From NCBI GenBank assembly GCA_045532295.1, contig JAZSFP010000004.1:796-24795 (forward strand): 24,000 nt of DNA, written 5' to 3'. The stretch is from Pumilibacteraceae bacterium (GTDB lineage: Bacteria > Bacillota > Clostridia > Christensenellales > Pumilibacteraceae). The position numbers were made by a program, and so were the translations under genes. Shown piece after piece: positions 5,666 to 20,292 of the stretch (position 1 is its first letter; the number at the start of each line of letters is the position of its first letter). The notes beneath the pieces are model-generated. The model saw only the letters and a list, made by a program, of their open reading frames with translations, was not told where the DNA came from and made no database searches.

Positions 5666-6196
5666 TTAGTAATTATAACCGAGCATTACTGCTTTGAGGT
5701 TTATTTCGATAAGGTCGGCTTTCTTGGGGGGAACGACTTTTTTCATAGCCTCTTCTAAGCCCTCGATAGAAACGACGCCACTCTCTTTGATGACTTTGCC
5801 GAGCATAATCATATTAGCGAGGGTGGGCGCGCCCATATCCTTCGCCATTTTGGTAGCGGGAATATAGAAAGCGTTAACGTCTTCTCTTGCCACTTTTCTT
5901 TCTATAAGCGTGCTATCAACGACGATTACCGAGCCTGCAACCGCCTCGTTTTCGTATTTATCGAGCGAGGGAAGGTTCATTGCGATTAAGATATCGGGGT
6001 TAGACACGATGGGCGAGCCAACGGGTTCGTCGGAAATGATGATACTGCAGTTTGCCGTACCGCCACGCATTTCAGGACCGTAAGAGGGCAACCAACTTAC
6101 TTGCTTATCCTCGAAAAGTCCCTTGTACGCCAAGAACTTACCTGCAAAGAGTACGCCTTGACCGCCAAAGCCTGCAATTAAGATTTGTTTCGTCAT
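5666..6196 (-). CDS. 2-oxoacid:ferredoxin oxidoreductase, gamma subunit (VOR/KOR type)
   Basis: 176 aa with the N-terminal [14 protein letters not shown] motif typical of OFOR gamma subunits. It is the last gene of the delta-alpha-beta-gamma cluster. Confidence 0.85.
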
Positions 6197-6200
6197 AGTC

Positions 6201-6953
6201 TTAGTCCTCCTTCTTCGCGCTTCTGTCCTTGTAAACGCCTAAGGGATAATAGGGGAGCATTTTCTCCTCTACCCACTCAAGCGCCTTTTGAGGCGTCATA
6301 CCCCAGTTGGTAGGGCAAGAAGAAACGACTTCGATAAGCGAAAAGCCTTTGCCTTCAACTTGGTTACGGAACGCTTTAAGGATTGCCTTTTTAGCGTTCT
6401 TTACGTTTTTAACGGAGTTAACTGCAACGCGCTCAATATATTCAGGACCGTCCAAGGTTGCGAGCATTTCGCTAACTCTAATGGGGAAGCCCTGCGTTGC
6501 GGTATCACGACCGTAGGGGGAGGTTTGCGTTACCTGACCGGGAAGGGAGGTAGGCGCCATTTGTCCGCCCGTCATACCGTAGATAGCGTTGTTTACGAAG
6601 ATAATCGTGATATTCTCGCCTCTGGTTGCTGAGTGTACCGTTTCCGCCATACCGATAGAGGCAAGGTCGCCGTCGCCTTGGTAAGTAAATACGATATTTT
6701 CGGGCATACAGCGTTTAAGTCCCGTTGCAACCGCGGGCGCGCGTCCGTGAGCCGCCTCTAACATATCGCAAGTAAAGTAGTCGTAAGCCATAACCGCGCA
6801 ACCAACGGGCGCAACGCCAATGGTCTTACCTTCAATGCCAAGTTCTTCAATAGCCTCCGCTACGAGACGGTGAATAATACCGTGAGTACAGCCCGGGCAG
6901 TAATGCAAGGGCGTATCGGTGAGCGTAGAGGGTTTTTTAAATACGATAGCCAT
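6201..6953 (-). CDS. 2-oxoacid:ferredoxin oxidoreductase, beta (TPP-binding) subunit
   Basis: 250 aa with CPGCTHG and the TPP motif GDGDLASIG...NNAIYGMTGGQ. Its ATG overlaps the alpha subunit stop (TAATG), and AAGGAGG lies within the alpha 3' end. Confidence 0.9.
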   Translation of the reverse strand: MAIVFKKPSTLTDTPLHYCPGCTHGIIHRLVAEAIEELGIEGKTIGVAPVGCAVMAYDYFTCDMLEAAHGRAPAVATGLKRCMPENIVFTYQGDGDLASIGMAETVHSATRGENITIIFVNNAIYGMTGGQMAPTSLPGQVTQTSPYGRDTATQGFPIRVSEMLATLDGPEYIERVAVNSVKNVKNAKKAILKAFRNQVEGKGFSLIEVVSSCPTNWGMTPQKALEWVEEKMLPYYPLGVYKDRSAKKED

Positions 6954-8014
6954 TATTTAACCTCCTTCGACATCTTTTCGATGCTTGCAAGCACCTCGTC
7001 GGGCGAGGGCAACATACCACCCGTTCTGCTCGTGAGCCATACGGGGCGTTTGCACTCGGTCGCAAGGCGAATATCTTCAATCATTTGACCCATAGAAAGT
7101 TCTACGGAAATAAAGCCTTTAACCTGCTCTGCGGTCTTTTTCAAAACTTCGGTGGGGAAAGGCCAAAGCGTAATGGGGCGAATAAGTCCCACTTTTACGC
7201 CTTTCTTTCTCGCTGCGGTTACCGCGTTTTTGGAAATTCTTGCCGCGATACCGAACGCTACTACGCAGTACTCCGCGTCGTCCATCATATAACTTTCGTA
7301 TAAAACTTCGTCCTTATGGATTTTAGCGTACTTTTCAAAGCGTTCAATATTCGTCTTTTCCAAAATCTCGGGTTTAAGATAGAGCGAATTGATAATATTA
7401 TGCTTTCTCTCGCCCTTAGTTCCGTTAGCAGCCCAAGGCTTTTCAACGGGCGTAGAATTACTCTCGGGGATAGAAACGGGCTCCATCATTTGTCCCATAG
7501 TTCCGTCTGCAAGTAGCATTACGGGCATACGGTATTTGTCCGCTAAGTCGAACGCCTTAATCGTATAGTCCGCCATCTCTTGAACGGAGGCAGGGGCAAG
7601 CACTATAAGATGATAGTCGCCGTGTCCACCGCCCTTGGTCGCTTGGAAGTAGTCCGACTGCGAGGGCTGAATACCACCAAGACCGGGACCGCCACGCTGA
7701 ACGTTGACGATAAGCGCGGGAAGGTCTGCGCCGGCTATGTAGGAAATACCCTCTTGTTTAAGGGAAATTCCGGGGCTTGAAGAGGAAGTCATTACTCTAA
7801 AGCCTGCGCCTGCAACGCCGTAAACCATATTGATTGCGGAAACTTCGCTCTCAGCCTGCAAGAATACTCCACCGATTTTGGGCATACGCTTAGCCATATA
7901 AGCGGCAATCTCCGTTTGAGGCGTGATGGGATAACCAAAGTAGTGTCTGCAACCTGCTTTAATAGCCGCTTCCGCTATCGCCTCGTTACCTTTCATTAAA
8001 ACTTTTTCAGCCAT
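6953..8014 (-). CDS. 2-oxoacid:ferredoxin oxidoreductase, alpha subunit
   Basis: 353 aa. The N-terminus reads KGNEAIAEAAIKAGCRHYFGYPITPQTEI, followed by the internal motif VQRGGPGLGG, both typical of OFOR alpha subunits. Confidence 0.9.
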   Translation of the reverse strand: MAEKVLMKGNEAIAEAAIKAGCRHYFGYPITPQTEIAAYMAKRMPKIGGVFLQAESEVSAINMVYGVAGAGFRVMTSSSSPGISLKQEGISYIAGADLPALIVNVQRGGPGLGGIQPSQSDYFQATKGGGHGDYHLIVLAPASVQEMADYTIKAFDLADKYRMPVMLLADGTMGQMMEPVSIPESNSTPVEKPWAANGTKGERKHNIINSLYLKPEILEKTNIERFEKYAKIHKDEVLYESYMMDDAEYCVVAFGIAARISKNAVTAARKKGVKVGLIRPITLWPFPTEVLKKTAEQVKGFISVELSMGQMIEDIRLATECKRPVWLTSRTGGMLPSPDEVLASIEKMSKEVK

Positions 8015-8026
8015 AATTCGTTCTCC

Positions 8027-8233
8027 TTATCTTTCCACCGTAATCGCGCAGTCGGGACACATCGTAGCGCAGAAAGCGCAACCGATACACGCCTCTTGGT
8101 TGATAACCTCCGCAGGCGAGTGTCCTTTCGCGTTGAGGACGGTCTTGCTAAGTTCAATAATCTTCTTTGGGCAAGCGTGAACGCAAAGTCCACAACCCTT
8201 GCACACGTTTACTTCAATCGTAACTTTTGCCAT
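8027..8233 (-). CDS. 2-oxoacid:ferredoxin oxidoreductase, delta subunit (2x[4Fe-4S] ferredoxin)
   Basis: 68 aa with two CxxCxxCxxxCP motifs (CKGCGLCVHACP and CIGCAFCATMCP). Confidence 0.9.
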   Translation of the reverse strand: MAKVTIEVNVCKGCGLCVHACPKKIIELSKTVLNAKGHSPAEVINQEACIGCAFCATMCPDCAITVER

Positions 8234-8237
8234 TGTC

Positions 8238-8894
8238 TTACTCCTTAATATCGTAATATTTGCTTTGAAGGACGAGGGGGAACGCTCCCTCCATTTCCAC
8301 GGCAGAAGTCGTGAAAAGCACCTTTAGTCCCGTCAAAGCGGAAAGTCTTTCGCACTCGTCTTTAGTCGCTAAGATATCGTTTGCGGTAGTCTCGTCGCCG
8401 AGGTTAGAGTTGTTGATGATTGCGGTGAACTTGATTTTGCACGCGCTCTCAATCTCACGCATAACCTCGATAGCGTCCTCCGCCGTTCTCGTTAGCGGAC
8501 GATAAAAGTTAGCCACGAAACACATTTCGTAATTGTTTTCTTCTAAAATATAGGGGGTATATCTTCCCAGCGCGTACGCTCCTCTATCGTCGCCACCGAC
8601 GTCAATTATTGCAACCGTATTGCGATTTTGGAACATTGAGTACGCTTCGGGAGGAAGGGAAGGAAGGTCTACGTTAGTGTTAGCGAAAGCAGGAAGAATA
8701 ACTTTTACGCCCTTCTCCACTAACTCTCTTTCGCTATCCGCCGAGCGAAAATAGGGGTTGACGATATCAAGGTCAGCGAGCGTTACCGCTTTCCCCTCGC
8801 CCTTTAGCGCGAGCGCGAGGTTGACCGCAATATTCGTTTTTCCGCTACCGTAATGCCCTGCGATTATATAGACGCGCTTGTCTACGCCTTGCAT
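8238..8894 (-). CDS. P-loop NTPase of the MinD/ParA/CooC-like (SIMIBI) type, function unknown
   Basis: 218 aa with Walker A GHYGSGKT at residues 13-20, then LADLDIVNP and the Walker-B-like AIIDVGGDD. It overlaps the ilvE 3' end by 13 nt, which suggests translational coupling. Confidence 0.7.
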   Translation of the reverse strand: MQGVDKRVYIIAGHYGSGKTNIAVNLALALKGEGKAVTLADLDIVNPYFRSADSERELVEKGVKVILPAFANTNVDLPSLPPEAYSMFQNRNTVAIIDVGGDDRGAYALGRYTPYILEENNYEMCFVANFYRPLTRTAEDAIEVMREIESACKIKFTAIINNSNLGDETTANDILATKDECERLSALTGLKVLFTTSAVEMEGAFPLVLQSKYYDIKE

Positions 8895-9961
8895 ACCTTA
8901 CACATCCAGCCGTGAGTATCCTCTACCTTGCCCCACTGAATACCCGTTAAGTTGTCGTAGAGTTTTTGAGTGAGCGCGCCGATTTCGTTATTCGATACGG
9001 TGTACTCAACGCCGTCGTAGAAGAGTTTGCCGATGGGCGAAACGACTGCCGCCGTTCCCGTTCCCCAAGCCTCTTCAAGTTTGCCTTCTTTTGCCGCGGT
9101 AAAGAGTTCGTCGACGGAGAAAAGGCGTTCTTCAACCTCGTAGCCCCACTCTTTGAGAAGTTCTACGCAAGACTTTCTGGTAATACCGGGAAGAACCGAG
9201 CCGGTGAGCGCAGGCGTGATAATCTTTCCGTCCACTTTGAACATTACGTTCATACTGCCTACTTCTTCGATATACTTTCTGTCTACGCCGTCAAGCCAAA
9301 GAACTTGGGTATAACCGTTCTCTTCCGCTCTCTTGCCTGCTCTAAGGGAGGCTGCGTAGTTACCACCGCACTTAGCGTAACCCGTACCACCGCGAACCGC
9401 TCTGACGTCGCTTTGCTCGATAGCGATTTTAACGGGGTTAATGCCCTCTGCGTAGTACGCGCCAACGGGCGAGCAGATTACCACGAACATAGCCTCGTGT
9501 ACTGCGTGAACGCCAAGGTGTGGGTCGTTACCGTACATATAGGGACGAAGGTAAAGGGAAGTTCCCTCGCTGTGAGGAACCCAGTCCTTTTCCACTTCTA
9601 CGATAGTCTTTAAGATATCAAGGCAAGCCTCTTCGTCGATTTGGGGCAAGCAAAGACGCTCCGCGCTATTGTTGAGACGGCGAATATTCTCTAAAGGACG
9701 GAACATTGCAATCTCGTTTTGGGCAGTTCTATAAGCCTTCATACCCTCGAAAATCTCCGCGCCGTAGTGAAGAACGGTGGACGCTGGATGAACGGGGATA
9801 GGCGCGAAAGGTACGATTTGAGCGTCGTACCAGCCCTTGTCCTCCGACCACTTCATAATAAACATATGGTCGGTAAACACTCTACCAAAACCCAGTTTGC
9901 TCTCGTCTTGAGGTTTTTGCTTGGGACTTGTCGTCTTAGTAATTTTAATATCGAATTTCAT
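8882..9961 (-). CDS. ilvE: Branched-chain-amino-acid aminotransferase (fold-type IV)
   Basis: 359 aa with FEGMKAYR, SLYLRP, GTGYAKCGGNYAASL, LPGITR and GTAAVVSPI. AGAGAGG lies 8 nt upstream of the ATG. Only 29 nt separate it from the upstream ligase gene, and that gap has no hairpin. Confidence 0.9.
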   Translation of the reverse strand: MKFDIKITKTTSPKQKPQDESKLGFGRVFTDHMFIMKWSEDKGWYDAQIVPFAPIPVHPASTVLHYGAEIFEGMKAYRTAQNEIAMFRPLENIRRLNNSAERLCLPQIDEEACLDILKTIVEVEKDWVPHSEGTSLYLRPYMYGNDPHLGVHAVHEAMFVVICSPVGAYYAEGINPVKIAIEQSDVRAVRGGTGYAKCGGNYAASLRAGKRAEENGYTQVLWLDGVDRKYIEEVGSMNVMFKVDGKIITPALTGSVLPGITRKSCVELLKEWGYEVEERLFSVDELFTAAKEGKLEEAWGTGTAAVVSPIGKLFYDGVEYTVSNNEIGALTQKLYDNLTGIQWGKVEDTHGWMCKVCKA

Positions 9962-9990
9962 AATATATACCTCTCTAAAAATAGTATAAT

Positions 9991-12285
9991 CTATAATTTA
10001 TTTCTTTGGATTTTACCCGAAGTCGTCTTGGGAAGTTCGTCGCGGAATACGACTACTCTGGGGTACTTATAAGGCGCGGTGCGTTCTTTAACGTAGGCTT
10101 GGATTTCCTTTTTGAGTTCTTCCGTGCCCTCCGTTCCCTTAACGAGCACTATGCTCGCCTTAACTACTTGACCGCGAACCTCGTCGGGCTGAGCGGAAAC
10201 GCCACACTCAAGCACGTAGGGAAGTTCCATAATGACGTTCTCGATTTCAAAAGGTCCGATGCGGTAACCAGACGACTTAATAACGTCGTCAACGCGTCCT
10301 ACGTACCAGTAATAGCCGTCCTCGTCGCGCCAAGCGGTGTCGCCCGTATGGTAATATCCGTCGTGCCAACACTCCGCCGTCTTTTCCTCGTCGTCGTAGT
10401 AGCCCACGAACAAGCCGTTGGGTTTGCCGTGCTCGGTCTTGATACAGATTTCGCCCACTTCGCCCACCGCGGTAGGTTTGCCGTCGGCGTCGAGAAGTTT
10501 AATGTCGTATAGGGGTACGGGCTTACCCATTGAGCCAAGGCGCGAGGTCGTGCCTGCAAGGTTAGCAAGCGCAACGGTGGTTTCCGTTTGACCAAAGCCC
10601 TCCATAATCTGAAGTCCCGTTGCCTTTTCAAACTGACGGAAAACTTCGGGGTTGAGCGCCTCGCCGGCAGTTGACATATGCTCGATTGAGGAAAGGTCGA
10701 AGTTGGAAAGGTCTTGCTTTATCATCATTCTAAGCATAGTCGGGGGAGCACAGAAAGTGGTTATATGGTACTTTGCGAACATAGGCATAATGTCGTTTGC
10801 GTCGAAACGGTCAAAGTCGTAAACGAACAGTCCCGCCTCGCAAAGCCATTGTCCGTAAAGTTTACCCCACGCTGCCTTTGCCCAACCCGTGTCGGATATG
10901 GTAAGGTGTAGTCCGTCGGGGTTTACCGAGTGCCAGTACTTTGCGGTTATAAAGTGTCCTAAGGGGTACTTGTAGTTGTGCATAGCAATCTTGGGATTGC
11001 CGGTAGTACCCGAGGTAAAGTACATAAGCATTATATCGTCTCCGCAAGGAGCGTCCTCGCCTCTTTCAAGTTTGCCCGTATAGAGCGTATACTCTTCGTC
11101 GAAGGTTCTCCAGCCCTCACGCTTGCCGTTGACCATAATGATATGCTCGAGCGAGGGAGCGTTCTCTTTTGCCTTTTCCACCTCGAAAGACACTTCGCCG
11201 TCAGCGGTACAAAGGATTGCTTTTACGCCCGCTTTGTTAAGACGGTAAGTAATATCGTGCTCTTTAAGTTGGTTGGTAGCGGGGATTGCGATTGCGCCGA
11301 TCTTGTGAAGAGCGACCATAGCGAACCAGAACTGATAGTGGCGTTTGAGGATAAGCATTACCCTATCGCCTTTCTTAATTCCAAGCGCCTTGAAGTAGTT
11401 TGCGCACTGGTTAGAGGCGCGTTTAAGGTCGTGGAAAGTAATTCTTCGCTCCGTTTTGTCGTTCGATATATGCATAAGCGCGGTCTTGTCGGGGTCTTTG
11501 TCCGCAATAGCGTCCACCACGTCAAAGCCGAAGTTAAAGGTATCGTCGTTTCTAAAGGATATGGAAGTAGGTACTCCTCTCCCGTCCTCGGTAGTCGTGA
11601 TATACTTTTCCCAAACGCGTTTTCCCTCGTCCTTTTTCTTGGGAGGCGCGAACACCACGTCGGGCTCGTTGATTTTTGCGTGGGTAATGGTAGAAACGGA
11701 CTCGCGAGCAGGGTTAAGAACGAACGCGTAGAACACGCAGTCTGCGTTGTCCACCGCTATCATACCGTGAGGAACGGAACTGTCGTAGTAAATGCTGTCG
11801 CCCTCGCGGAGAATTTCGATATGATTTCCTACCTGTACTTTTAACGCGCCCGATACTACCACGTCGCACTCTTGTCCTTCGTGCGAGGTTAGTTCTATGG
11901 GCTTATTTTGTTGGAGAGGGTCGTACGAGGACACTACGAACAACGGCTCGGCAATTCTGTTCTTAAAGGCGGAGGCGAGGTTATAGTAAACCATACCGTG
12001 AGCCTTTTGAATTTCTTGACCTTCGCCCTTTCGCGTTACCGTGTATCCTGCAAGTCGAGGACCGCTACCGTCGATAATTTCGGTTACGTCAACCTTTAAA
12101 GCGGCTGCGCAACGGTACAAAAAGGCAAAGTTAAGGTCGCTACTACCGTTCTCGCAAGAGGCGTACTCTTCTTCGCTTACGCCCGTCTTTTGCGCCATTT
12201 CTTCAATCGAAAGTCCTTCGATTTCACGCAAAGTGCGAATACGCTGTGCCATCTCCATTATTTTGCTTTCTAAACTGTTAAACAT
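9991..12285 (-). CDS. Fusion protein: XRE-type HTH + cupin + AMP-forming acyl-CoA synthetase (medium-chain/ACSM-like), paralog 1 (Val T-box controlled)
   Basis: 764 aa counted from ATG 12285 (AGGAG 6 nt upstream); the track's extra 14 codons lie in the leader. The HTH is RIRTLREIEGLSIEEMAQKTGVSEEEYASCENG. The cupin is HEGQECDVVVSGALKVQVGNHIEILREGDSIYYDSSVPHGM. Ligase motifs are FTSGTTGNPK, SDTGW, GFGQTET, YHTGD, SSGYRIGPFEIE and PKTTSGKIQR. Confidence 0.85.
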   Translation of the reverse strand: MFNSLESKIMEMAQRIRTLREIEGLSIEEMAQKTGVSEEEYASCENGSSDLNFAFLYRCAAALKVDVTEIIDGSGPRLAGYTVTRKGEGQEIQKAHGMVYYNLASAFKNRIAEPLFVVSSYDPLQQNKPIELTSHEGQECDVVVSGALKVQVGNHIEILREGDSIYYDSSVPHGMIAVDNADCVFYAFVLNPARESVSTITHAKINEPDVVFAPPKKKDEGKRVWEKYITTTEDGRGVPTSISFRNDDTFNFGFDVVDAIADKDPDKTALMHISNDKTERRITFHDLKRASNQCANYFKALGIKKGDRVMLILKRHYQFWFAMVALHKIGAIAIPATNQLKEHDITYRLNKAGVKAILCTADGEVSFEVEKAKENAPSLEHIIMVNGKREGWRTFDEEYTLYTGKLERGEDAPCGDDIMLMYFTSGTTGNPKIAMHNYKYPLGHFITAKYWHSVNPDGLHLTISDTGWAKAAWGKLYGQWLCEAGLFVYDFDRFDANDIMPMFAKYHITTFCAPPTMLRMMIKQDLSNFDLSSIEHMSTAGEALNPEVFRQFEKATGLQIMEGFGQTETTVALANLAGTTSRLGSMGKPVPLYDIKLLDADGKPTAVGEVGEICIKTEHGKPNGLFVGYYDDEEKTAECWHDGYYHTGDTAWRDEDGYYWYVGRVDDVIKSSGYRIGPFEIENVIMELPYVLECGVSAQPDEVRGQVVKASIVLVKGTEGTEELKKEIQAYVKERTAPYKYPRVVVFRDELPKTTSGKIQRNKL

Positions 12286-12353
12286 AATTACTCCTATAAG
12301 TAAGCGAATAATAAGGCTATCGTTCAATAGACATAGGCTATGGAACAGAGCCT

Positions 12354-12626
12354 ACAAAAAACGCTCGTCTCAAAAAATCATCTTTGAGACGAGCATACTT
12401 TTCCGTATTACCCGCGGTACCACTCAAATTGCGCAAGCGCGCCACCTCAGGCTCAAACAAGCCGTAGACTTTTACGCAGTCGTCACGGGAAGGTTCTAAT
12501 AGGGCGAGCGCCCGTTCTTCCTTCCGACTCGGAAGTTACAGTTCTTTTCTCACTTTAACGGTTCACACCTTCGTCCGTCTCTCTGAAAAGTTACCCAAAA
12601 AGAACACTCTTCGTCACAGTCTTTAC
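12354..12626 (-). promoter_or_regulatory. T-box riboswitch leader, specifier GUA (Val)
   Basis: Read on the minus strand. GA/K-turn: GACT-GTGAC-GAAG pairs with CTTC-CGA-GTC. AG bay: AGAGAG. Distal stem ACGG/CCGT has a loop containing GGTGTGA. Specifier loop: GAAC-U-GUA-A-CUUC, with the codon at the complement of 12537-12539. T-box motif: AATTTGAGTGGTACCGCGGG (complement of 12411-12430). Terminator: GCTCGTCTCAA/TTGAGACGAGC (12363-12394) plus GTTTTTTGT. TTTGAG of the T-box can pair with CTCAAA of the terminator 5' arm to form the antiterminator. Confidence 0.9.
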
Positions 12627-12632
12627 GGGGCA

Positions 12633-12661
12633 ATTATACCATTTTTAATATGGTTTGTCAA
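12633..12661 (-). promoter_or_regulatory. Consensus SigA-type promoter of the Val T-box unit
   Basis: Minus strand: TTGACA (12661-12656), a 17 nt spacer, then TATAAT (12638-12633) preceded by TGg (extended -10). It starts 45 nt downstream of the paralog-2 stop codon. Confidence 0.85.
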
Positions 12662-12706: not shown

Positions 12707-14974
12707 TTATAATTTATTTCTTTGGATTTTACCCGAGATAGTCTTGGGCAGTTCGTCGCGGAAGACTACGATACGGGGGTACTTATAGGGCGCGGTATGG
12801 GACTTAACGTAGGCTTGGATTTCCTTTTTAAGTTCTTCCGTTCCCACCGTTCCTTTGGTTAAAACTACGCTCGCCTTAACTACCTGACCACGAATATCGT
12901 CGGGCTCGGGGGACACGGCGCACTCAAGCACGTAGGGAAGTTCCATAATAACGCTCTCGATTTCAAAAGGTCCGATGCGGTAGCCAGACGACTTGATAAC
13001 GTCGTCTTTACGGCTAACGTACCAAAAATATCCGTCCTCGTCGCGCCAAGCGGTGTCGCCCGTGTGGTAAACGCCGTCGTGCCAAGCGTCAGCGGTAAGG
13101 TCTTCCGCTCTGTAATATTCCTTGAAAAGTCCACAGGGAACGGACTCGTCGGTATGGATAACGATTTCGCCCGTCTCACCGTTGGGAAGAGAATTGCCCT
13201 CGTCGTCCACGATATCCACTCTGTACTGGGGCGACGCTTTACCCATCGAGCCGATTTTGGGCGTCGTTCCGCGGAGGTTACAGATAGTAAGCGTGGTTTC
13301 CGTTTGGCCAAAGCCCTCCATAATCTTAAGCCCCGTAGCGTGCTCGAACTGACGGTAAACCTCGGGGTTGAGCGCCTCGCCTGCCGTGGTCATATGATGA
13401 ACGGAGGAAAAATCGTACTTTCCAAGGTCGCTCTTTATGAACATTCTGAGCATAGTTGGGGGAGCGCAGAAGGTCGTGATTTGGTACTTTGCGAACATAG
13501 GAAGGATTTCCTCTGCCTTGAAGACGTCGAAGTCGTAAACGAACACCGCGCCTTCGCAAAGCCATTGACCGTACAGTTTGCCCCAGAGCGATTTGCCCCA
13601 GCCCGTATCGGAAATGGTAAAGTGTAGTCCGTCGCGCTCGCAGTTATGCCAGTATTTAGCGGTAACGTAATGTCCAAGCGCGTAGGTGTGCTTGTGAGCC
13701 GCCATTTTAGGATTGCCCGTCGTTCCAGAAGTGAAGAACATAAGCGCGGTATCCTCGCCGGCAGAGGCGTTCTCTGCGCGGTCGAACTTGCTCGAAAAAC
13801 GCGTGTACTCTTCGTTAAAGTTATGCCAGCCCTCTTTTTCGCCGTTGACGAGCAACTTAACTTCCACGGAAGGACAGTTCTTCGACGCGCGCTCGGCAAT
13901 GTCGGAAACGTCGCCGTCGGCAGTACAAACGATAGCCTTTACGCTCGCTGCGTTAAAGCGGTATTCAAAGTCGTGCTCTTTGAGTTGGTTGGTAGCAGGG
14001 ATTGCGACCGCGCCGATTTTATGAAGAGCGACCATAGCGAACCAGAACTGATAATGGCGTTTAAGCACGAGCATTACCTTATCCCCTCTCTTAATTCCAA
14101 GCGAGAGGAAGTAGTTCGCGCACTGGTTAGAGGCTTTTTTGATATCCTTAAAGGTAAATCTGCGCTCCGTTAAATCACGGCTTATATGGAGCATAGCAAG
14201 TTTATCGGGGTACTTATTCGCAATCTCGTCCACAACGTCAAAGCCGAAGTTAAAGGTGTCGGTATTCTTGAACTTAATGTCGGTAAGAGTGCCGTTCTCG
14301 TCCTCGGTGGTCTCGACGAACTTCTCGCAAATAAGTTCCTCGGACTCCTGATGCGCCACTACGCTCTTTCTTACTACCTCTTCCTTGGTGTCCTCGCCGG
14401 GAAGAACTACCGCGCAGAACACGCAGTCGCGTCCGCCGATTGCTATCATACCGTGAGGGGTGGACGAATTATAGTAAATGCTGTCGCCCTCGTTAAGAAT
14501 TTCCGTATGCTCGCCGATTTGTACTTTAAGCGAACCCTCTAAAACGAGGTCGAACTCTTGACCGCCGTGGGTGGTAAGGTGGATAGGCTTATTCTGTTGC
14601 GACGCAGAATACTCGTATCTTACCCAGTAAGGCTGAGCAATTTTATCGCGGAACTTGGGCGCAAGGTTCTTAATGTCGATGCCCTCTTCTTTAGCCGTCG
14701 ACTGTCCCTGTCCCTTTCTCGTTACCGTATAAGAAGATAGGTTCGCAGCGTTACCTTCAAGAAGTTCGGTAAGTTCTACGCCGAAAACTAACGCGCATTT
14801 ATGAATAAATGAAAAGGGAATATCTATTCGACCAGACTCGTATTTAATGTAATCGCTCTCGCTAACTTCAGCGCGATTTGCCATTTCCGATACCGAAAAT
14901 CCCATTACGTTACGCATTTCTTTGATACGCTGGGCAACTTCCGTCAGTCTGTTCATAGTGTTCTTGTCTTCCAT
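12707..14974 (-). CDS. Fusion protein: XRE-type HTH + cupin + AMP-forming acyl-CoA synthetase, paralog 2 (Ile T-box controlled)
   Basis: 755 aa counted from ATG 14974 (AAGGAG 9 nt upstream). The track's extra 43 codons run through the T-box terminator. The architecture and motifs match paralog 1 (FTSGTTGNPK, SDTGW, GFGQTET, YHTGD, SSGYRIGPFEIE, PKTISGKIQR), and both share the C-terminal end SGKIQRNKL. Confidence 0.85.
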   Translation of the reverse strand: MEDKNTMNRLTEVAQRIKEMRNVMGFSVSEMANRAEVSESDYIKYESGRIDIPFSFIHKCALVFGVELTELLEGNAANLSSYTVTRKGQGQSTAKEEGIDIKNLAPKFRDKIAQPYWVRYEYSASQQNKPIHLTTHGGQEFDLVLEGSLKVQIGEHTEILNEGDSIYYNSSTPHGMIAIGGRDCVFCAVVLPGEDTKEEVVRKSVVAHQESEELICEKFVETTEDENGTLTDIKFKNTDTFNFGFDVVDEIANKYPDKLAMLHISRDLTERRFTFKDIKKASNQCANYFLSLGIKRGDKVMLVLKRHYQFWFAMVALHKIGAVAIPATNQLKEHDFEYRFNAASVKAIVCTADGDVSDIAERASKNCPSVEVKLLVNGEKEGWHNFNEEYTRFSSKFDRAENASAGEDTALMFFTSGTTGNPKMAAHKHTYALGHYVTAKYWHNCERDGLHFTISDTGWGKSLWGKLYGQWLCEGAVFVYDFDVFKAEEILPMFAKYQITTFCAPPTMLRMFIKSDLGKYDFSSVHHMTTAGEALNPEVYRQFEHATGLKIMEGFGQTETTLTICNLRGTTPKIGSMGKASPQYRVDIVDDEGNSLPNGETGEIVIHTDESVPCGLFKEYYRAEDLTADAWHDGVYHTGDTAWRDEDGYFWYVSRKDDVIKSSGYRIGPFEIESVIMELPYVLECAVSPEPDDIRGQVVKASVVLTKGTVGTEELKKEIQAYVKSHTAPYKYPRIVVFRDELPKTISGKIQRNKL

Positions 14975-15042
14975 TTTTCTAATCTCCTTTTTATTTTTTA
15001 AGGCTGTGAGCGGAGGGGGCAAATAGTCTTTAAGGCGAAGAC

Positions 15043-15315
15043 CTAAAAAACCCATCTCAATGATTCTAACATTGAGACGGGTTAAAATAACTCGCGGTAC
15101 CACTCAACTTGCATAAAAAATTATGCCACTTATCAGGTTCAAACAAACCCTACGCACTAACGCAGCGGACTCGGAAAGCGCCTACTAAAGCAATCGCTCT
15201 TTGGGGCTTTCGGCTCGGAAGTGATAGGTCTTGCGGACTCTTCGTTTATCGGTTCTCAGCAACCCGACTCTCTGGAAAACTATTTATCCAACCGTCTTCG
15301 TCACAGCCTTTATAT
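15043..15315 (-). promoter_or_regulatory. T-box riboswitch leader, specifier AUC (Ile)
   Basis: Read on the minus strand. GA/K-turn: GGCT-GTGAC-GAAG pairs with CTTC-CGA-GCC. AG bay: AGAGAG. Distal stem TCGG/CCGA has a loop containing GCTGAGA. Specifier loop: GACC-U-AUC-A-CUUC, with the codon at the complement of 15223-15225. T-box motif: AAGTTGAGTGGTACCGCGAG (complement of 15091-15110). Terminator: ACCCGTCTCAATG/CATTGAGATGGGT (15050-15082) plus TTTTTTAGG. Confidence 0.9.
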
Positions 15316-15321
15316 GCGCCT

Positions 15322-15350
15322 ATTATAGCACTACGCTTTTTCTTTGTCAA
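15322..15350 (-). promoter_or_regulatory. Consensus SigA-type promoter of the Ile T-box unit
   Basis: Minus strand: TTGACA (15350-15345), a 17 nt spacer, then TATAAT (15327-15322) preceded by TGc. It begins 30 nt after the amidohydrolase stop. Confidence 0.85.
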
Positions 15351-15379
15351 CGATTTTACAAGGGTTTTTTAAATTTTTT

Positions 15380-20019: not shown

Positions 20020-20292
20020 ATAAACAAAACCCGCAGATGAGAAGATTTCCTTCTCTTCTGCGGGATGATTACAAAGAACCACGGTACCACCCGTCATTGC
20101 CGTAAAATACGACCTCTTATAGAACTCCAACAAGTCCGTTCGCTATAACGGGCGCGCCCGTAATTCCTTACTATAAGTTCCGGAATTCCGCTCCGATACG
20201 AGACTGCTATCCCGTCCGCCCGTTATCTCGCACCAACCGATAACTCTCTGAAGGGTTTTTGACGACACGCATAATATCTTCACAGCGTTTAT
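20020..20292 (-). promoter_or_regulatory. T-box riboswitch leader, specifier CUC (Leu)
   Basis: Read on the minus strand. GA/K-turn: CGCT-GTGAA-GATA pairs with TATC-GGA-GCG. AG bay: AGAGAG. Distal stem TTATC/GATAA has a loop containing GGTGCGA. Specifier loop: GCAG-U-CUC-G-UAUC, with the codon at the complement of 20200-20202. T-box motif: AATGACGGGTGGTACCGTGG (complement of 20079-20098). Terminator: CCCGCAGAAGAGAAG/CTTCTCATCTGCGGG (20030-20064, one mismatch) plus TTTTGTTTAT. Confidence 0.9.

Follow-up and report, generated by a model that had tools for sequence, protein, structure and literature searches.

Promoter and T-box leader upstream of an acyl-CoA synthetase gene

The 24,000-nucleotide stretch analyzed here (the window; positions 796 to 24,795 of contig JAZSFP010000004.1 in the Pumilibacteraceae bacterium assembly GCA_045532295.1) carries on its minus strand, at 15350–15043, an element in which, as judged from its sequence and from comparison with homologues, a promoter precedes a T-box leader of the class-I, transcription-attenuating type whose specifier is AUC. 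The gene behind it encodes a protein of 755 amino acids with helix–turn–helix (HTH), cupin, and acyl-CoA synthetase domains. The boundaries of the span named in the original prediction, 15043–15350, coincide exactly with the −35 hexamer and the end of the terminator U run. The features of the leader and the regulated gene are as follows.

15322–15350 (−): sigma-70-type promoter (consensus scan, 12/12 matches)
15212–15308 (−): Stem I (covariance-model alignment and pair counts)
15223–15225 (−): specifier triplet AUC (isoleucine, Ile), then A at 15222, then the CUUC strand (covariance-model alignment)
15174–15211 (−): Stem II (GAAAGC/GCUUUC) with a conserved GAAA...AGUAG S-turn region (covariance-model alignment)
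15151–15173 (−): Stem IIA/B region (covariance-model alignment, near-invariant columns)
15135–15150 (−): extra 5-bp hairpin GGGUU/AACCU in the linker that joins the F-box to Stem III (an insertion in Rfam)
15111–15126 (−): Stem III (GCAUAA/UUAUGC; covariance-model alignment)
15072–15110 (−): T-box sequence and antiterminator (covariance-model alignment)
15043–15083 (−): intrinsic terminator (14-bp stem at 15083–15049, then a U run to about 15043)
12707–14987 (−): regulated gene (ribosome-binding site GGAG at 14987–14984, ATG at 14974, stop at 12707; 755 amino acids)

The promoter consists of a −35 hexamer TTGACA (15350–15345), a 17-nt spacer ending in TGc, and a −10 hexamer TATAAT (15327–15322), with the TG of an extended −10 element at 15330–15329 (all on the minus strand); transcription presumably starts near 15315. 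The original prediction had compared this leader with a valine (Val) leader, which is the third T-box of the window (12626–12382); the top-scoring T-box (20292–20058) is of the leucine (Leu) type and reads CUC. The promoter-to-ATG distance was said to be the same in the Ile and Val leaders, and it is: the first base of the −35 hexamer lies 376 nt from the ATG in both (15350 to 14974 and 12661 to 12285), and the originally counted 341 nt is the same distance if the start is placed 7 nt past the −10 hexamer.

The Rfam T-box model RF00230 matches 15313–15070 with 86.7 bits (E 7.6e-18 in the 24-kb window), and the match is complete over model positions 1–219, not truncated. The curated gathering score of RF00230 is 93, which is an annotation cut-off, not a structural feature. 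Because the match falls under this threshold, it was missed in a default Rfam scan, in which the sole T-box of the window was that at 20292–20058 (111.1 bits); an E-value threshold adds two matches, 15313–15070 (86.7 bits) and 12626–12382 (75.4 bits). At the sampled loci, the gathering score was reached by two of 10 Ile-class and two of nine Val-class leaders and by all nine detected Leu-class leaders. Most leaders of this subfamily thus score below the threshold, and standard annotation therefore misses the subfamily systematically. A match of HgcE at 15278–15320 was dismissed as chance (12.5 bits, E 9.2). An 87-amino-acid plus-strand open reading frame (ORF) at 15109–15372 and a GTG-started, 798-amino-acid version of the regulated gene were both discarded as artefacts of mechanical ORF listing.

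Homologous leaders and leader architecture

Homologues were collected in a species-level scan with one genome per species, in which an alignment of the two paralogous synthetases of the window served as the query. With 600 stretches examined, at least 569 were confirmed as relatives, and the comparisons in this work use the best 80 of these. All 80 genomes were assembled from metagenomes of animal gut or rumen; one carries the label Sphaerochaetaceae, and the others are labelled Clostridia, Acutalibacteraceae, Christensenellaceae, or Oscillospiraceae. A search of these genomes with a profile built from the two window leaders detected 121 full-length leaders, nearly always one immediately ahead of the matched gene and another immediately behind it. 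The leaders were classed according to whether the downstream ORF was closer to the first or the second synthetase of the window (74 Ile-class and 47 Val-class leaders), and the column aligned with AUC was then read. Promoters with at least 10 of the 12 consensus matches were present in 71 of the 74 orthologous, Ile-class leaders.

Stem I is composed of a basal helix (GGCU/AGCC), a kink-turn (K-turn) GA motif (UGAC...CGAG), a GAAG/CUUC helix, the specifier loop, an AG bulge (CAGAGAG, 15274–15268, minus strand), and a distal helix (GUCGG/CCGAU) with the distal loop GGGUUGCUGAGAACC (15265–15251). The K-turn elements flank the GAAG/CUUC helix, and AUC-A is located immediately 5′ of CUUC. Both the AG bulge and the distal loop align to the Rfam model, and their columns are mostly invariant or at least 90% conserved in an alignment of 40 leaders. 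The specifier loop is compact (15295–15290 and 15229–15222), with two nucleotides (A-C) on the 5′ side and one nucleotide, the codon, and one further nucleotide on the 3′ side, and the S-turn consensus AGUA/GAA is absent. A G-G-N stretch of this loop pairs with N-Y-Y just 5′ of the codon, and its N:N pair covaries among the 74 Ile-class leaders (AU in 34, UA in 26, and CG in six); this arrangement may or may not provide a fold equivalent to the S-turn. The low Rfam posterior probabilities and sub-threshold scores are probably attributable to this compact loop without AGUA/GAA.

Downstream of Stem II, the Stem IIA/B region contains an F-box-like sequence, GCUGCGUUAG, at 15166–15157 (minus strand), for which a pseudoknot is predicted only, and the AGUA and CGU columns are nearly invariant in the 40 leaders. 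The extra hairpin at 15135–15150 was paired in 96% of the cells of the same alignment, compared with 32–58% when the partner strand was slid, and its pairs include GC, AU, GU, CG, and UA.

The T-box sequence UUGAGUGGUACCGCGAG forms the antiterminator at 15107–15072 (minus strand), which has an outer helix UUGAG/CUCAA, a bulge UGGUACC, and an inner helix GCGAG/CCCGU. The UGGU of the bulge (15102–15099, minus strand) is complementary to the tRNA 3′ end ACCA, and bacterial tRNA-Ile(GAU) has the discriminator A73. The T-box columns UUGAGUGGUACC were invariant in all 40 aligned leaders, and the conserved T-box sequence UUGAGUGGUACCGCG is present, invariant across the orthologues, and accompanied by a UGGN-bulged antiterminator. 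Antiterminator and terminator share a strand, which lies 3′ in the former and 5′ in the latter, so that the two folds are mutually exclusive. The terminator-containing segment has a fold energy of −25.9 kcal/mol, against −6.9 kcal/mol for the antiterminator alone, and because the terminator is much the stabler of the two, which is the usual imbalance, the switch would depend on the tRNA.

Specifier and amino-acid assignment

The original prediction had read the specifier loop as U-AUC-A directly before CUUC, and the covariance-model alignment places the triplet there. Its assignment of AUC as an Ile specifier is also supported: AUC is invariant in the 74 leaders ahead of the first-synthetase type, whereas the homologous position in the 47 paralogue leaders reads GUA (43) or GUC (four) and is always followed by a purine. 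The specifier class consequently agrees with the gene class in 121 of 121 leaders. On its 5′ side, AUC is preceded by either U or C; on its 3′ side, where a purine is usual, it is followed by A in 57 leaders, C in 16 (e.g., L008:122-400, L010:1703-1969, and L034:395-684), and G in one (L061).

Alternative frames (UAU/CAU and UCN) were ruled out by conservation and by the stop triplets in the same frame of the Val class. The +1 frame in the Val-class leaders gives UAG or UAA, and the −1 frame is not conserved, which leaves AUC as the only conserved sense triplet. The assignment to Ile thus rests on comparative evidence, namely 74 of 74 AUC against 47 of 47 GUA or GUC, and not on position alone.

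Covariation of the leader stems

Pairing was first counted on a MAFFT alignment of all 121 leaders, for which slid-partner controls gave 23–75%. The proportions of paired cells in the Ile class were 93% in the basal helix, 100% in the helix below the specifier, 98% in the distal helix, 93% in Stem II, 83% in Stem III, 99.7% and 88% in the outer and inner antiterminator helices, and 94% in the terminator. The distal helix occurs with UA, CG, and AU variants among the 74 leaders.

A second count was made on 40 diverse Ile-class leaders, aligned with MAFFT independently of the structure. Over Stems I, II, and III and the antiterminator, 87.7% of cells were paired versus 37.4–55.7% with slid partners, a measure that is favoured somewhat by the derivation of the structure from the window sequence. 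The double-change counts, which are without such bias, showed double changes in 23 of 42 pairs (228 cells). The covariation score was 0.353 versus at most 0.154 with slid partners, and for four of five measures none of 500 shuffles reached the observed value. By helix, GAAG/CUUC was 100% paired and the basal helix 94%, the latter with double changes; Stem II was paired in 91.7% of cells with four of six pairs double-changed, and Stem III in 91.1% with five of six. The outer and inner helices of the antiterminator were paired in 100% and 89.5% of cells, and the terminator in 91.1% versus 31.8–51.4% slid, with six double-change pairs. These results show that the T-box fold is supported by covariation.

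The compensatory differences on which the original prediction relied are real. Compared with the Val leader at 12626–12382, the distal stem differs as UCGG/CCGA versus ACGG/CCGU and the basal stem as GGCU/AGCC versus GACU/AGUC, and in a 58-pair model the two window leaders differ by eight compensatory and two one-sided changes. The prediction was to be abandoned if this pattern disappeared with more homologues; it persists and becomes stronger, with the 23 double-changed pairs given above. Gene conversion between the tandem leaders, prompted by a pairwise column identity of 77%, was ruled out because, in the alignment of all 121 leaders, an Ile and a Val leader of one genome are no more alike (identity 0.66 in the window and 0.65 on average) than leaders of one class from different genomes.

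The regulated gene product

According to Pfam, the 755-amino-acid product contains an XRE-type HTH (residues 15–75), Cupin_2 (135–189), AMP-binding (249–621; 229.9 bits), and AMP-binding_C (78.5 bits) domains. This HTH–cupin–acyl-CoA synthetase architecture is common to thousands of proteins; none on record is identical to the window protein, and the best protein match is 93% identical. The best NCBIfam model for the synthetase is MbcS (440.7 bits), and the best PDB match is 3ETC (617 bits over residues 218–753; runner-up, 345 bits). MbcS selectively activates 2-methylbutyrate and isobutyrate (PMC10026030), and MacsMa, the enzyme of structure 3ETC, has a preference for 2-methylbutyrate (PMC10455477). 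As the MbcS equivalog cut-off is missed, the protein is filed only as a neighbour of MbcS, its nearest characterised relative. MacsMa from Methanosarcina acetivorans and MbcS from Staphylococcus aureus share the AMP-forming acyl-CoA synthetase domain (approximately residues 218–755) with the window protein, but lack its N-terminal XRE-HTH and cupin module of approximately 220 residues.

The HTH–cupin module (residues 1–220; 14974–14320, minus strand) has weak PDB matches only, to SinR and MBF. The same fusion is found on the paralogous synthetase (12285–11630, minus strand) and is conserved in thousands of homologues, and the module could be a second, protein-level sensor or an autoregulator. 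When an operator for the HTH was sought near the promoters in −35-anchored alignments, the upstream region was A-rich and contained no conserved motif.

Neighbouring genes and serial T-box units

The regulated gene is directly followed by the Val leader, which has its own promoter, and the Leu T-box unit lies on the other side of the Ile leader. The neighbouring features are as follows.

19992–15380 (−): Leu T-box gene set (a divergent LeuA-like protein, an 817-amino-acid fusion, and an Amidohydro_2 protein)
12355–12661 (−): Val (GUA) T-box leader of the paralogue, including its promoter (RF00230 match at 12626–12382)
12285–9991 (−): second HTH–cupin–acyl-CoA synthetase, 63% identical to the regulated protein
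9961–8882 (−): IlvE (NCBIfam, 481 bits; cut-off 307)
8894–8238 (−): ParA/Mrp-like P-loop nucleoside triphosphatase (NTPase)
8233–8027 (−): VorD-like ferredoxin of 68 amino acids with two CxxCxxCxxxCP motifs
8014–6953 (−): ketoisovalerate:ferredoxin oxidoreductase (VOR), alpha subunit
6953–6201 (−): VOR, beta subunit
6196–5666 (−): VOR, gamma subunit

The operon of the Val unit (5666–12285, minus strand) thus encodes the synthetase paralogue, IlvE, the P-loop protein, and VOR, for which the VorB model gave 567 bits (NCBIfam; cut-off 399). An acid-activating enzyme, a 2-oxoacid:ferredoxin oxidoreductase, and a branched-chain aminotransferase are therefore encoded together in the window. The Val leader has the same architecture as the Ile leader and precedes a gene with the same domains; unlike the Ile leader, it has a GUA specifier, and the lengths of upper Stem I and Stem III differ.

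The order of synthetase, paralogue, IlvE (not always present), P-loop gene, and VOR was found in approximately 40 of the 80 loci. Five loci (L039, L040, L073, L078, and L080) lack the paralogue; here, IlvE and/or the P-loop gene, together with VOR, come immediately after the gene with the Ile T-box. The clearest layout is that of L040, where an Ile leader (5696–5967) heads a one-strand operon of synthetase, IlvE, P-loop gene, and VorDABG (ORFs 6001–8271, 8293–9372, 9365–10024, 10042–10248, 10258–11319, 11319–12071, and 12075–12611) with gaps of at most 22 nt, and the leader profile finds no other leader among these ORFs.

Several further features of these loci were observed. The P-loop NTPase is kept between IlvE and VOR in 42 of the 80 loci and may be an iron–sulfur maturation factor for VOR. 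The locus on contig JAEDOD010000052.1 (L080), binned as Sphaerochaetaceae (Spirochaetota), contains the same T-box, synthetase, IlvE, and VOR with 70% protein identity, which reflects either mis-binning or horizontal transfer. At L044:8493-8761, between the synthetase and IlvE of a locus without the paralogous synthetase, the leader profile gives a weak match (43.7 bits) over its positions 104–283 only; this may be a remnant of the Val unit.

The Leu T-box (20292–20058, minus strand) is the top-scoring T-box of the window, and its CUC is kept in 10 of 10 homologous leaders. In one of these (L063), the helix below the specifier is GUGG/CCAC instead of GAUA/UAUC. The 817-amino-acid protein of the Leu unit is a xylose-isomerase-like TIM barrel fused to an acyl-CoA synthetase, and this unit may be equivalent to the Ile and Val units, but for isovalerate or Leu. 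No terminator was found between the Leu operon and the Ile promoter, or between the Ile-controlled gene and the Val promoter, where the stop codons lie 30 nt (15380–15350) and 46 nt (12707–12661) from the next −35 hexamer. The three T-box units are therefore arranged in series, and transcripts from upstream would meet the next T-box as a checkpoint.

Proposed regulation and physiology

Taken jointly, the leader, the gene product, and the gene context make it likely that the element is an Ile T-box attenuator, which would be switched by tRNA-Ile and would induce a synthetase for the salvage of 2-methylbutyrate to Ile. The steps set out below follow the established T-box mechanism, and we infer the role of the enzyme from homology and context. 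RNA polymerase would start near 15315, and Stem I would bind tRNA-Ile(GAU), with AUC pairing with the anticodon and the platform of AG bulge and distal loop contacting the tRNA elbow. An uncharged tRNA would pair through its free ACCA end with UGGU at 15102–15099 and stabilise the weak antiterminator at 15107–15072, allowing read-through into the gene that starts at 14974; with a charged tRNA, the stabler terminator at 15083–15049 would form, and transcription would stop at the U run.

The induced protein would be a short branched-chain acyl-CoA synthetase converting 2-methylbutyrate to 2-methylbutyryl-CoA. This product would be reductively carboxylated by VOR to 2-oxo-3-methylvalerate, which IlvE would transaminate to Ile, as in the rumen "isoacid" route. 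The Val (GUA) T-box would likewise control the paralogous synthetase, together with IlvE and VOR, for the conversion of isobutyrate to Val, and the Leu (CUC) T-box upstream would control a third acyl-CoA synthetase. An Ile-starvation switch ahead of a synthetase, a transaminase, and VOR is sensible only in the anabolic direction.

The formation of Ile from 2-methylbutyrate and of Val from isobutyrate in rumen anaerobes was described by Robinson & Allison 1969 and Allison & Peel 1971, as cited in PMC7356843, and the route from 2-methylbutyrate to Ile has also been proposed for a rumen methanogen (PMC2812497). On the wider proposal that the three serial T-boxes with their own synthetases, together with IlvE and VOR, are the genetic basis of this 1960s rumen route from branched volatile fatty acids to branched-chain amino acids, our judgement is evenly balanced; the specifiers would then label the substrates as isovalerate, 2-methylbutyrate, and isobutyrate.

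Several observations weigh against the proposed Ile switch and its physiological role. The Rfam score of 86.7 falls 6 bits short of the gathering score (93), and the 5′ strand of the specifier loop reads ACGG and not the AGUA consensus, with a low posterior probability of the model in that part. The base after AUC is not A in 17 of the 74 orthologous leaders. The window contains no tRNA gene, and no tRNA-Ile was found in the 40 related loci scanned. The synthetase scores 440.7 bits against an MbcS equivalog cut-off of 850, so that the substrate assignment is putative. Finally, IlvE and VOR stand behind the Val T-box in the window. A shortage of Ile by itself would therefore increase the synthetase alone, unless VOR and IlvE are sufficient at basal levels or from other gene copies.

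Of the other explanations, the best-surviving one accepts the T-box and its Ile specificity and has the synthetase make 2-methylbutyryl-CoA as a primer for anteiso fatty acids, with Ile starvation as a proxy for a shortage of primer. The best NCBIfam family of the synthetase, MbcS, gives this some weight, because its role in S. aureus is the priming of branched-chain fatty acids from exogenous 2-methylbutyrate and isobutyrate (PMC10026030). However, in approximately 40 genomes, IlvE and a complete VOR are found linked to the gene, which in L040 and similar loci shares a single Ile-T-box operon with them, and the induction of a transaminase and a 2-oxoacid oxidoreductase on starvation fits anabolism only. 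We therefore regard priming as the sole role of the enzyme as unlikely; priming and Ile synthesis are compatible and not mutually exclusive.

The synthetase might also activate propionate, from which VOR would make 2-oxobutyrate and the ordinary ilv pathway Ile; this is slightly less probable still. Monticello et al. are said to have reported in 1984 that anaerobes such as Clostridium sporogenes can make Ile from either propionate or 2-methylbutyrate, and the substrate of an acyl-CoA synthetase is not readable at this level of similarity, with a score below the MbcS cut-off. However, a preference for branched C4 and C5 acids is common to both of the nearest characterised relatives, synthetase, VOR, and IlvE form a self-sufficient three-step route only for 2-methylbutyrate, and none of ilvBN, ilvC, and ilvD was seen in the operons examined. 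Both of these explanations alter only the physiology. A decayed or differently specified T-box, either a non-switching relic or one with the frame shifted to UCN (Ser), is very improbable and is contradicted by the comparative data: although the Rfam score is below the threshold, the Stem I S-turn consensus is missing, and A, C, or G after AUC gives UCA, UCC, or UCG, which are all Ser codons, the same frame reads UAG or UAA in the Val-class leaders, the specifier class fits the gene class throughout, and the promoter, K-turn, AG bulge, T-box sequence, antiterminator, and terminator are conserved with covarying helices in the 74 orthologous leaders.

Comparison with known systems and implications

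As an RNA, the leader is a further, ordinary RF00230 T-box, and its interest lies mainly in its regulon. It shares with the Ile T-boxes of ileS and ilv genes in Firmicutes a Stem I with K-turn, specifier loop, AG bulge, and distal loop, as well as Stem II, the IIA/B F-box, Stem III, the UGGU antiterminator bulge, and the overlapping terminator. It also shares the AUC followed by A, and it obeys the third-position "C rule" (PMC7778990). Its target sets it apart from those T-boxes: an HTH–cupin–acyl-CoA synthetase takes the place of a tRNA synthetase, standard biosynthetic, or transporter gene. It also departs from the RF00230 consensus in its compact specifier loop without AGUA/GAA and in the extra covarying hairpin at 15150–15135.

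Compared with the isoacid route of rumen anaerobes and methanogens, the locus has all three predicted activities under predicted Ile and Val starvation control; the classical work on this route consisted of physiological labelling. A full-text literature search returned no paper linking a T-box to an acyl-CoA synthetase or VOR, although an earlier mention is possible, as key surveys lie outside its coverage. Such T-box targets are not mentioned in Wels 2008 and Sun 2013, and the terms "CoA" and "AMP-binding" do not occur in the TBDB paper. Papers linking the isoacid route to T-box control or to the HTH–cupin synthetase family were likewise not found in that search, which is an absence of evidence.

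In terms of RNA biology, the leaders represent a subfamily that mostly falls just under the Rfam gathering score and has a Stem I specifier loop that deviates from the consensus. Few features name the amino acid that a downstream gene serves as directly as a T-box specifier does. Here, the specifiers would assign an otherwise unannotated "AMP-binding protein" to Ile and its paralogue to Val, both beside IlvE and VOR. Loci of this type are common in uncultured gut and rumen Clostridia, with at least 569 confirmed matches in species-representative genomes. Old physiology, in which rumen and gut anaerobes need or use isoacids for branched-chain amino acids, would thus be converted into specific, testable gene assignments, which bear on ruminant nutrition (isoacid supplements) and on metabolic models of gut Clostridia.

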